A stretch of 14,374 nt of DNA from a virus (taxonomy: Duplodnaviria > Heunggongvirae > Uroviricota > Caudoviricetes): IMG/VR virus record IMGVR_UViG_2778261203_000003; one strand, 5' to 3'. Made by a program: the position numbers and the translations under genes. Under the pieces are notes generated by a model. That model was given only the letters and a program-made list of their open reading frames with translations. It was not told the origin of the DNA and ran no database searches. Positions 6,562 through 10,232 of this stretch are shown here, piece after piece. Numbering within the stretch: position 1 is the first letter of the stretch; the number at the start of each line of letters is the position of its first letter.

Positions 6562-6832
6562 AAAAATTCCTTAATACTGATAACTTGGCGCACTATACAC
6601 ACGTTCCTGAAGAAAGCTATAGTTTTTTGATGGGGTTGAAGATGGCTGGATGTCTAAAATAAACATTGCTTCATATGTTCAACTATGCGTTAATGATTGC
6701 GTCGGTTTGAAGAACAGACGATATACGAAGTAGTTTACTAAAGCAGTTCTCATTTCAGGTGTTATTCACTTATTCCTTCTTTGAGTCTCTCCAATTAAGT
6801 ACGAAGTCGTTTCTGTTATGCAAACCATTTAT

Positions 6833-6845
6833 GCCGAAAGGCTCA
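6833..6845 (+). promoter_or_regulatory. Csp 5'-UTR 'upstream box' element ahead of the cspB RBS
   Basis: GCCGAAAGGCTCA at 6833-6845, close to the GCCGAAAGGCACA element described in the cspA-family 5' UTRs, 16 nt upstream of the cspB ATG. Confidence 0.4.
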
Positions 6846-6861
6846 AGTTAAGGAATGTAGA

Positions 6862-7077
6862 ATGTCAAATAAAATGACTGGTTTAGTAAAATGGTTTAAC
6901 GCTGATAAAGGTTTCGGCTTTATTTCTCCTGTTGATGGTAGTAAAGATGTGTTTGTGCATTTTTCTGCGATTCAGAATGATAATTATCGAACCTTATTTG
7001 AAGGTCAAAAGGTTACCTTCTCTATAGAGAGTGGTGCTAAAGGTCCTGCAGCAGCAAATGTCATCATTACTGATTAA
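6862..7077 (+). CDS. cspB: Cold-shock protein CspB, 71 aa
   Basis: Translation [71 protein letters not shown] carries the RNP1 (KGFGFI) and RNP2 (VFVHF) motifs. Confidence 0.95.
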
Positions 7078-7359
7078 AATTCATCGCTCGTCTGTATACG
7101 ATAACGAAGAAGGCTGATGCCTGAGTAGAGATACGGACAGAGTAGTGAATATTGGATCTCTTTAATAAAAAGTAAGGAGGTCCAATACATGAAACAATGG
7201 CTAGCATATTTGGCAAAATCTTAATCAGGAAAAGTATGCTAACCATTGTGGTGAAGTGCAGGTTTGCTGCATGAATAGTTTTACAGCAGAAGCTAACTGC
7301 TGGCATGGCAAAACAAAGTGCGTAAGTGGATGACTCCCACAAAAAGCACCACAATCTCA

Positions 7360-7382
7360 AACCCGCTCAGGCGGGTTTTTTA
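7360..7382 (+). terminator. Rho-independent terminator
   Basis: Stem AACCCGC (7360-7366), loop TCAG, stem GCGGGTT (7371-7377), then TTTTTTATT. Lies about 280 nt downstream of cspB. Confidence 0.55.
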
Positions 7383-7440
7383 TTATCTGCTTTAAATATA
7401 TTATTAAAATATAAAAAATACTTGTTACTAATAAAATCAA

Positions 7441-7611
7441 TCAGGCTACAGCTTTAAGATTTGTCTGGAATACTTTGTTGCAATGAGGGCAGATCAAAAG
7501 GGCACCTTTTTGTACTCTTGAAAAACTGTGTTCTGACTCTTGGGTGCAGTTTGGGCAGGAACATTTAACGAGATAATTACGGCGTGATTTTGAGTTTTTA
7601 CGTTCTGACAT
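7441..7611 (-). CDS. Small zinc-ribbon protein, 56 aa (the ORF track extends it to 73 aa from an upstream ATG at 7662); possibly YnfU-like
   Basis: Two C-x2-C pairs (CSCPNC ... CPHC) about 20 residues apart. The internal ATG at 7611 has an AGGA RBS at about -9; the upstream ATG at 7662 has none. The assignment to the K-12 small protein YnfU is from uncertain memory. Confidence 0.5.
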   Translation of the reverse strand: MSERKNSKSRRNYLVKCSCPNCTQESEHSFSRVQKGALLICPHCNKVFQTNLKAVA

Positions 7612-7830
7612 AGGCTTTTCCTGTATAAATGGCCGTATACAGTACACTAAATATGAAAACATTTCTCGTATTATTATTTTATATATGACTTTCTTTCAAA
7701 ATAATTACCCACATTTTTAATGTGTATGTTTTTTTAGCGCCGTTGAGAACAACGTGTGCTGTCAAAACTACCCCGTAGACTCCGATCTTTTCAAACATAT
7801 TGCACCATCCGTGTACATCGGGGTGAGGAT

Positions 7831-8046
7831 ATGAAATCAATGGATAAGTTAACAACAGGTGTTGCCTATGGCACATCGGCGGGTAATGCTGGTTTCTGGG
7901 CATTGCAGTTACTCGATAAAGTAACTCCGTCACAGTGGGCTGCAATCGGTGTGCTGGGTAGCCTGGTTTTTGGCCTGCTGACGTATCTGACAAATCTTTA
8001 TTTCAAGATTAAAGAAGACAGGCGTAAGGCTGCGAGAGGAGAGTAA
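7831..8046 (+). CDS. essQ: Phage-21-type pinholin (S21-like), 71 aa, with dual-start motif
   Basis: [71 protein letters not shown] is near-identical to phage 21 S21 as recalled. Met1-Lys-Ser-Met4 dual start (antiholin/holin), two transmembrane domains, RBS GTGAGGA. Confidence 0.85.
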
Positions 8047-9386: not shown

Positions 9387-9748
9387 GGTAATATTAAATC
9401 GGAACATTTACATCGCGGAATGTAAAATTTAAATAAAAAGGACTCTTCCATGAGCCAAAATTCCTGAAATCTTAAGGGTAAGATAAAAGGTCTTAATCAG
9501 AATGACACGTTTTATTAATAAATAAAGCTATTCTTTCATTGCTGTGTTTTTCTTTACAAAAGTAATCCTTGCTATGGGTGGTTAATCATGCGTTAATGGT
9601 GTTCTGGTTTGTTACAAATTTATCTGAAGCAGTCATTGTTATAATTTTATTATTTGTACCTCTTGAGATTTCCTTGTTGGTTTTTCTCTCTGATATTTTT
9701 TTTCGGACCATTCTGCCCAAGGGCTAATTTCTTCAAAAGGTAATAATT

Positions 9749-9961
9749 ATGTCTAACAAAATGACTGGTTTAGTGAAATGGTTTAACCCTGAAAAAGGTT
9801 TTGGTTTCATCACGCCGAAAGATGGCAGCAAAGATGTGTTTGTCCATTTCTCAGCAATTCAGAGCAACGATTTCAAAACATTAACTGAGAATCAGGAAGT
9901 TGAATTTGGTATTGAGAACGGACCTAAAGGTCCTGCCGCTGTTCATGTAGTGGCGCTTTGA
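9749..9961 (+). CDS. cspI: Cold-shock protein CspI, 70 aa
   Basis: Translation [70 protein letters not shown] with RNP1/RNP2 motifs. Long AT-rich 5' leader typical of csp genes. Confidence 0.9.
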
Positions 9962-10049
9962 GGTAGACAATATTACAAACCATATTCACTTTAGATGCCC
10001 GTGTTGTCATGGTTCCCAGTATAGAACATCATCTTTTGATGTTTCTGAC

Positions 10050-10160
10050 ATGAATCCTTTCGGGGCAAAATGTATCTTTTGTAAATCAATGATGATTACA
10101 TTTGATAATATTTCACAATACTTAAATGCCAGCCGTCTGTCGTTGGATTTAAAAAAGTGA
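10050..10160 (+). CDS. Small ORF, 36 aa from the first ATG; the frame is open from 9951 and upstream encodes a C-P-C-C zinc-ribbon half; possibly ynfN-like
   Basis: In-frame translation ...FRCPCCHGSQYRTSSFDVSDMNPFGAKCIFCKSMMITFDNISQYLNASRLSLDLKK*. There is no ATG, GTG or TTG in frame between 9951 and 10050, so the true start is unresolved. A strong terminator follows directly. Confidence 0.35.
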   Translation: MNPFGAKCIFCKSMMITFDNISQYLNASRLSLDLKK

Positions 10161-10165
10161 AAATG

Positions 10166-10188
10166 AAGGCTCCTTCGGGAGCTTTTTT
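10166..10188 (+). terminator. Rho-independent terminator after the cspI/ynfN-like unit
   Basis: Stem AAGGCTCC (10166-10173), loop TTCG, stem GGGAGCTT (10178-10185, one G-U pair), U run 10183-10188. Confidence 0.6.
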
Positions 10189-10232
10189 GCTTGGTGTCTA
10201 TTCGATGGATACTCACATACTACGGTAACATC

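Follow-up and report, generated by a model that had tools for sequence, protein, structure and literature searches.

A covariation-supported structured RNA between the cold-shock gene cspB and an intrinsic terminator in the Qin prophage of Escherichia coli K-12

Does the interval between a prophage cold-shock gene and the neighboring holin gene carry genes that have escaped annotation? The question is raised by a 14,374-nt stretch of tailed-phage DNA (IMG/VR record IMGVR_UViG_2778261203_000003; the whole stretch is called the window here), which is the Qin cryptic prophage of Escherichia coli K-12. Between the cold-shock gene cspB and the holin gene essQ, a reading made from the letters alone (the sequence-only reading) had pointed to a minus-strand open reading frame (ORF) with two cysteine pairs and, on the plus strand, to a strong Shine-Dalgarno (SD) sequence, an 11-codon mini-ORF and a strong terminator. 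All of these features are present, but a conserved structured RNA that runs across them from the cspB stop codon to the terminator had been overlooked. This plus-strand RNA of ~305 nt (7078–7384) is the main feature of the interval.

The segment 7078–7390 has a folding z-score of -6.5. Its core of ~160 nt consists of a hairpin, H3, and a junction of four helices, P1–P4, and is followed by the intrinsic terminator (Table 1). Pattern scans of viral contigs gave ~180 instances of the RNA in at least six sequence types, among which type A is the Qin-type lineage. In the natural variant L170 the hairpins H2 and H3 are gone and P1–P4 are kept, showing the junction to be the core unit. H3 displays compensatory changes and a conserved C.A mismatch, and can be lengthened by pairing of ACAAU (7194–7198) with AUUGU (7245–7249). 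The architecture of H1, the hairpin next to cspB, is common to types A, B, D and E despite different stem sequences, and its internal loop is conserved. H1 was compared by single-sequence folds; RNAalifold on a MAFFT alignment gave nothing, the 3′ arms being out of register. The internal loop (7115–7140) has GAYAACGAWGA 5′ and CUGAGUAGA 3′ of the apical hairpin, and likewise in L005 (phage Cyrano), L104, L093 and L157. In type E the H1 loop reads GAUGA and CUGA, which we take to resemble box C and box D of a kink-turn.

The terminator, placed at 7360–7382 by the sequence-only reading, was found as a stem-loop at 7359–7378 with a T run to ~7384, and it also appears in the minimum free energy (MFE) folds. 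Three terminator-like sites are seen in the region, against 0.8 expected from shuffles. A weak terminator-like site lies within the RNA itself at 7256–7279, where P2 is followed by GAAUAGUUUU; this arrangement is restricted to type A.

Table 1. Features in and around the interval between cspB and essQ (window positions; P1–P4 are given as pairing arms).
Feature	Position	Strand	Basis or remark
cspB 5′ untranslated region (UTR), cspA-type thermoregulator, head of the transcription unit that carries the RNA	6701–6861	+	Rfam RF01766
cspB coding sequence, 71 aa, cold-shock domain	6862–7077	+	b1557; Pfam CSD E = 9.8e-32
H1, long imperfect hairpin with conserved internal loop (GAUAACGAAGA ... CUGAGUAGA) and small apical hairpin	7082–7150	+	MFE fold
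H2, 15-bp hairpin, Qin-type lineage only; 3′ arm 7173–7187 holds the SD TAAGGAGGT	7150–7187	+	Predicted fold
Mini-ORF MKQWLAYLAKS, 11 codons plus TAA; probably no gene	7189–7224	+	Unannotated
H3, conserved hairpin, core pairs 7199–7210 with 7233–7244	7194–7249	+	RNAalifold, pair counts
Multi-branch core domain P1–P4	7245–7355	+	Alignments A2 and A5; covariance model R1
P1	7245–7253 with 7347–7355	+	
P2	7256–7261 with 7267–7272	+	
P3, loop AAGCUAA (GAAGCUAAC)	7284–7289 with 7297–7302	+	
Conserved single-stranded junction AAAGUGCGUAAG	7315–7326	+	
P4	7326–7329 with 7337–7340	+	
Intrinsic terminator closing the cspB unit and the RNA	7359–7384	+	8-bp stem (5 G-C pairs), 4-nt loop, T run
ynfU (b4776), 56-aa zinc-ribbon small protein, convergent with cspB	7441–7611	-	RefSeq; Pfam PF23499
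Promoter-like site upstream of ynfU	7670–7699	-	TTGAAA, 18-nt spacer, AATAAT; consensus match only, 10/12
essQ, holin	7831–8046		RefSeq annotation

The conservation of the fold was scored over 38 base pairs in a MAFFT alignment of 23 sequences (A2) and in a model-fitted alignment of 27 sequences that includes Lelliottia (A5). In A2, 94.3% of the cells pair, compared with 28–55% when the partners are slid, and 13 of the 38 pairs are changed on both sides, a number reached by no shuffle. The model-fitted alignment leans towards the model by construction; here 20 of the 38 pairs are changed on both sides, and none of 500 shuffles reaches any of the five measures. Across the alignments 94–98% of the cells are paired (27–59% in the slid controls), the MAFFT alignments have 10–13 pairs with changes on both sides, and the smaller alignment agrees. 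A covariance model of the RNA (R1) matches window positions 7194–7359 with 147.5 bits. Pairs are thus kept by compensatory changes beyond the controls, and the element is a conserved structured RNA. Cells with G.U (75) outnumber those with A.C (24), which identifies the csp (plus) strand as the strand that folds. When all types were translated, no reading frame conserved across types was seen on either strand, and the types differ by 1- and 2-nt indels.

At gathering score, the only Rfam 15 family matching in 7078–7440 is RF01766, the cspA thermoregulator, which ends at 7093; at E values up to 10 the matches in this segment are terminator-driven ones of 14–23 bits, and ARAGORN detected no tRNA or tmRNA in it. 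We found no description of a cspB 3′ UTR RNA or small RNA (sRNA) in the published literature. The structured RNA is apparently undescribed, and of a familiar kind.

In a BLAST search with 7078–7440 as input, phage Cyrano and ~90 E. coli plasmids matched 7243–7385 with 82% identity, and phage PHB10 matched 7232–7352 with 75% identity. Both phage matches lie just 3′ of a cspB-like gene, in unrelated contexts. By pattern scans the RNA was also found in Escherichia, Shigella, Enterobacter, Kosakonia, Kluyvera, Phytobacter, Superficieibacter, Pseudescherichia, Leclercia and Atlantibacter, and the covariance model recovered a distant homologue in Lelliottia (43 bits, E ~1e-9), located between a csp gene and ynfU. 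Overall, the RNA is spread over phages, phage-plasmids and chromosomes in about 11 genera of Enterobacteriaceae. The search patterns partly required GAAGCUAAC and AAAGUGCGUAAG, so the invariance of these two blocks in the collected set is inflated; both have diverged in the Lelliottia homologue. A csp gene on the same strand lies no more than 450 nt upstream in 160 of 162 loci. A convergent ynfU follows downstream in 135 of 163 and is missing from types B, D and E. We therefore assign the element to csp and not to ynfU or the lysis cassette. A Q-dependent late terminator (tR′) was considered and rejected, as the RNA also follows csp genes in non-lambdoid contexts, namely the SSU5-like phage Cyrano, plasmids and chromosomes.

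The survey also gave three observations on individual loci. Phage Cyrano (OV696614, L005 2631–2846) has an intact but unannotated cspB-like gene with a long 5′ leader of its own. In the ~90 related E. coli plasmids the match to the RNA adjoins dnaE and is reported under the dnaE feature. In one E. coli contig (L156, 1441–1607, minus strand) the RNA model has a further match, which is weak (31.6 bits) and covers the H3 and P1 parts only. Its interior differs and is rich in G+C, and it is situated at the 5′ end of an ORF of 226 aa; it may be a chance match or an unrelated RNA with similar closing helices.

How might the RNA be made, and what could it do? We found no promoter-like site on the plus strand between cspB and the terminator. 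Given this, and a unit built like a moron (promoter, gene, terminator), the simplest view is that the RNA is the 3′ UTR of the mRNA of cspB, which is cold-inducible. It would arise by read-through from the cspB promoter and would act on the fate of the cspB transcript. Control of csp mRNA fate is, in our estimate, the likeliest function, at odds slightly above even. The compact 3′ domain could set the rate at which csp mRNA is cleared by 3′-to-5′ exonucleases and RNase E during or after cold shock, and might protect against decay or time it in cold acclimation; alternatively, the outcome could be release of a stable 3′ fragment. A switch between two nearly isoenergetic folds, one with P1 closed and one with H3 extended, may be part of such control.

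This second fold was preferred by RNAalifold on the larger alignment. Here the ACAAY of the 5′ edge lengthens H3 by pairing with RUUGU, which makes up the first half of the P1 5′ arm, and GUGC of the conserved junction pairs with GCAY, overlapping the P1 3′ arm. In the alternative fold 96.6% of the cells pair and 10 pairs are changed on both sides. At positions shared by both folds the substitutions are transitions that fit either, and the mean energy gap between the folds across the family is 0.8 kcal/mol. We treat bistability as a lead and not as a result; the RNA may be a two-state switch.

A structured UTR is not without precedent on this gene. The RF01766 match at the head of cspB spans 6701–7093 with 158.8 bits (gathering score 78), and thermometers have been described in the 5′ UTRs, and only there, of cspG, cspI and cspB (Nat Biotechnol 2025, PMC13271884). 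Like these and the cspA thermosensor, the present RNA would be a structured UTR of a cold-shock mRNA, with alternative folds and on the same transcript. The thermometers control translation initiation, whereas this RNA sits 3′ of the stop codon and past the end of the RF01766 match; the two have no sequence or structure in common, and a temperature response is known for the thermometers alone. The cspA thermoregulator model likewise has a match, of 112.8 bits, at the second cold-shock gene of Qin, cspI (9603–9988 and 9972–10230 region). Downstream of cspI come ynfQ and ynfR rather than the structured RNA; the ynfQ product also has paired cysteines (CPCCHGS ... CIFC).

What, then, is the strong SD within this RNA? 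The SD had been given as 7172–7180; it is indeed present, one base further on, as TAAGGAGGT at 7173–7181. It is a perfect 9-nt match to the anti-SD and is spaced by 8 nt from the ATG at 7189 that opens the 11-codon mini-ORF, which ends at 7224 as described. The window has one AAGGAGG with an ATG 4–9 nt behind it, where 0.13 are expected; of 200 shuffles, 24 have at least one. The combination of SD and ATG on its own is mildly unusual yet not compelling; the full 9-mer is rarer. H2, in which the SD is hidden, has a predicted energy of -18.3 kcal/mol at 37°C and of -16 to -28 kcal/mol from 42 to 10°C, and when the full 3′ UTR is folded the probability that the SD is unpaired is 0.002 at both 15 and 37°C. 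Substitutions in the type-A H2 stem mostly keep pairing, through wobble, and types B and D have an unrelated hairpin in its place. The seemingly orphan SD is the 3′ arm of a lineage-specific hairpin.

H2, in which a strong SD pairs, partly through G.U, with an arm resembling an anti-SD, is similar to SD-sequestering thermometers of the FourU type; unlike these, it lies within a 3′ UTR and ahead of only an 11-codon ORF. A weak FourU match at 7153–7184 (16.6 bits, gathering score 60) was rejected, as the score is under the gathering score and H2 is very stable over the whole temperature range given above. The STAB-SD of Bacillus cry3A, an untranslated SD-like stabiliser, offers another comparison for H2.

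Three explanations had been offered for the mini-ORF: a leader peptide, a remnant of a deleted gene and a real micro-protein. The leader-peptide idea fails on the gene order. From 7224 to the terminator the plus strand has no ORF of at least 60 aa, and ynfU, the annotated gene that comes next, is on the minus strand, so that a leader peptide would have nothing to regulate. As for a deleted gene, the alignment that had been proposed as a check was run by BLAST on E. coli genomes and phages and gave the same context throughout. Of 5426 complete E. coli genomes, 1634 have the 98-nt stretch around the mini-ORF, with at least 80% query coverage in 1631 of 1635 matching records. Among the E. coli matches listed there is neither an annotated feature under this stretch nor a longer gene headed by the SD and ATG, and the same is true of the six phage records whose match is full length, where the context is unchanged as well. 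Three observations speak against conservation as a micro-protein. The SD and ATG are confined to type A, all other types of the region lacking both; the type-A peptides (MKQWLAYLAKS, MKQWPAYLAKS, MKQWPAYLAIT, MKQWPAYLVIT, MKQWPAYLAKP and MKQ*) differ by five changes that are non-synonymous and one that is nonsense, none being synonymous; and the SD is sequestered in the predicted hairpin. Codons 3–8 moreover overlap the 5′ arm of H3, the RNA hairpin conserved in all types. The mini-ORF is unmentioned in the accessible part of the supplements of the reporter-transposon screen PIRT-seq (PMC12350097). Taken together, we conclude that the mini-ORF is probably a by-product and no conserved gene.

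Several points nevertheless weigh against control of csp mRNA fate by an untranslated RNA. The sequence types are few (~6–8 lineages), so that the compensatory events number tens and not hundreds. We infer both co-transcription with cspB and function. The helices specific to the alternative fold derive mainly from one-sided wobble changes, and the Lelliottia homologue keeps P1 without them. Conservation of the P3 loop and junction fits a trans-acting seed or a protein site at least equally well. The SD, the ATG and the position of the stop are retained in 13 of 15 type-A variants. This last point leads to a reading that we regard as quite improbable, in which the mini-ORF is translated in the Qin-type lineage, either as a switch, with H2 melting or being opened, for instance by Csp proteins or a helicase, and ribosomes then shifting the folds, or to give a functional micro-protein. 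The perfect SD at its 8-nt spacing would suit such a role; the ORF ends in the H3 loop, so a translating ribosome would block H3, and ACAAU 7194–7198 inside the ORF competes with the P1 3′ arm for AUUGU 7245–7249. The type-A variants are at least 90% identical, and the retention of SD and ATG among them is thus of little weight. The near-zero accessibility of the SD at 15 and 37°C argues against translation, as do the six non-synonymous or nonsense changes, MKQ* among them, the other types that keep the RNA without SD and ATG, and the lack of a downstream gene on the strand and of any annotation among the genome matches listed (of ~1630). It is scarcely credible, in turn, that the stretch holds no functional RNA and is a decaying coding remnant, a spurious ORF region or a DNA-level site. 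A 97-aa minus-strand ORF (7067–7360) is a candidate for this, hypothetical proteins are annotated in PhiR42_1 and HannyBb (minus strand) and in PHB10 (41 aa, plus strand), and many types have long minus-strand stretches free of stops. However, 1- and 2-nt indels shift every frame and stops break the K-12 frames in other types. Substitutions are concentrated at paired positions and are compensatory, and the excess of G.U over A.C reflects selection on the plus-strand transcript. We rejected the 97-aa ORF and the phage-annotated ORFs, which are interrupted in other types; the hypothetical proteins of PhiR42_1 (L003 2490–2765, minus), HannyBb (L004 2490–2729, minus) and PHB10 (L006 2450–2575, plus) are probably spurious calls.

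Action in trans is a possibility that we consider unlikely, though less so than translation of the mini-ORF. The RNA, made with cspB or cut from its mRNA, would be a 3′-UTR-derived base-pairing sRNA or a protein sponge, for which GAAGCUAAC and AAAGUGCGUAAG would provide the seed or the binding site. In types A–F conservation is higher in the unpaired loop and junction than in the stems, the L170 variant keeps the P1–P4 core without H2 and H3, and types A, B, D and F end in an intrinsic terminator with a U tail, like Hfq-dependent 3′-derived sRNAs; in Qin this terminator would be shared with the parent cspB mRNA, as in sRNAs of that kind. Among known sRNAs IpeX lies at the 3′ end of the DLP12 moron nmpC, and this prophage sRNA is also a precedent for the Q-to-holin interval. 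In common with CpxQ, SdhX, DapZ and IpeX, the RNA would have its place at an mRNA 3′ end, its gene's terminator, strict linkage to the parent gene and conserved unpaired segments (reviewed in PMC9438474). It is much longer and more branched than these sRNAs and has no sequence similarity to them; the core alone is a 110-nt four-way junction, bigger and more structured than typical seed-type sRNAs. Further points against action in trans are that no internal promoter-like site was found on the plus strand, that types C and E are without an obvious canonical terminator right after P1, and that RNAduplex, run with the core against the cspB, cspI, cspF, ynfU and essQ mRNAs, gave nothing above shuffled controls. 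The Pas prophage sRNAs occupy the same Q-to-holin interval (bioRxiv 10.64898/2026.05.13.724894). PasA, PasC and PasD, together with STnc100, AgvB and AsxR, resemble the RNA in being non-coding cargo that lambdoid prophages carry in the stretch from the late antiterminator to the lysis cassette. They are confined to pathogenic lineages and linked to esterase, stx or holin genes, whereas the present RNA is found in K-12, is linked to csp and occurs outside lambdoid phages as well; the Rfam models of STnc100, AgvB and AsxR do not match it. More speculative still, and given little credence by us, is a two-state RNA device carried by mobile elements together with csp and often ynfU. It would sense cold or the binding of Csp or YnfU, its switch between P1 closed and H3 extended would determine when csp mRNA is destroyed or a regulatory 3′ fragment released, and the SD and mini-ORF of Qin would add a translation input. 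Control of csp mRNA fate in cis is the reading that we prefer.

The minus-strand ORF had been read as a zinc-ribbon protein, and this is right: it is real, it is translated and its cysteines are conserved. It is the already known ynfU, labeled ‘putative zinc-binding protein YnfU’ in RefSeq and annotated in K-12 and in strains 100% identical here. The end of its AGGA lies 6 nt from the ATG, and in the ORF list the same minus-strand frame extends to 73 aa (7441–7662). The protein, MSERKNSKSRRNYLVKCSCPNCTQESEHSFSRVQKGALLICPHCNKVFQTNLKAVA, contains the knuckles CPNC and CPHC. It matches PF23499 with 107.3 bits (cut-off 27), residues 1–49 aligning to the full length of the 49-position model, so that the ORF is a member of this known family with no difference from it. 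C22 and C44 are found in all of 26 YnfU homologues, and C17, C19 and C41 in at least 90%; the SEHSF motif, within an SEHSFSRVQKG core, is conserved too. The homologues form ~49 clusters, all from Enterobacteriaceae, and a scan of viral sequences with YnfU alone returned near-identical E. coli prophages only. Weaver et al. (bioRxiv 10.1101/511675) detected YnfU by ribosome profiling with stalled initiation (Onc112), confirmed it by western blot of a sequential peptide affinity (SPA)-tagged version, found it the most abundant of the newly tagged small proteins and pointed out its two zinc knuckles. PIRT-seq (PMC12350097) picked it up again. The AlphaFold model is of moderate confidence (predicted local distance difference test, pLDDT, 67), and Foldseek and sequence searches of the PDB gave non-significant zinc-ribbon matches only, the best being small archaeal ribosomal proteins (E ~0.3).

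Chromosomal and apparently non-prophage homologues of YnfU adjoin cold-shock-domain genes in Klebsiella, Salmonella, Lelliottia and Kosakonia. Because of this neighborhood, which in Lelliottia also includes a gene of the cold-shock-induced YnaE family next to ynfU, the data suggest that YnfU is part of the same cold-shock context; a direct tie to the RNA is not included in this suggestion. The two genes stand in tandem in Klebsiella and diverge in Salmonella, and they converge in Lelliottia and Kosakonia (L268/L269 2007–3179; L264, L265, L270). In Franconibacter YnfU is found by itself.

A window coordinate w translates to 1648416 - w in NC_000913.3, with the strand reversed. The segment 6800–8100 is 100% identical to MG1655 and is found nearly full length in 1619 of 5426 complete E. 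coli genomes. The RefSeq gene order is quuQ/ydfT (antiterminator Q), ynfS and cspF (minus strand), cspB (plus), ynfU (minus), essQ, ydfR, rrrQ and rzpQ. The interval had been placed between Q and S and suspected of carrying morons; with the Q gene upstream and the holin gene downstream the placement is correct, and the interval is a moron-type insertion between the two. It may best be described, with somewhat better than even confidence, as two features converging on one terminator region, ynfU from the minus strand and the cspB 3′ UTR RNA from the plus strand. Several E. coli strains carry IS1, IS5 or IS200 insertions inside the cspB-to-essQ region, and in two loci (L024 and L080) the sequence upstream of the RNA has been replaced; the interval is a recurrent insertion target.

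Neither of the two features that drew attention to this locus qualifies as a new gene: ynfU is already catalogued, and annotators should not treat the strong SD in H2 as the start of one. The useful outcome, a by-product, is an unannotated, covariation-supported structured RNA of 160–300 nt on a classic cold-shock gene of E. coli K-12. Together with csp genes, this RNA has spread through phages, phage-plasmids and chromosomes. The occurrence of ynfU beside csp outside prophages is a new observation for the YnfU family, and as a recurrent genomic pairing it provides a first functional lead for this orphan protein. Cold-shock mRNAs are a model for control by RNA structure, which has so far been placed in their 5′ UTRs; with a conserved 3′ domain there would be a second point of control.

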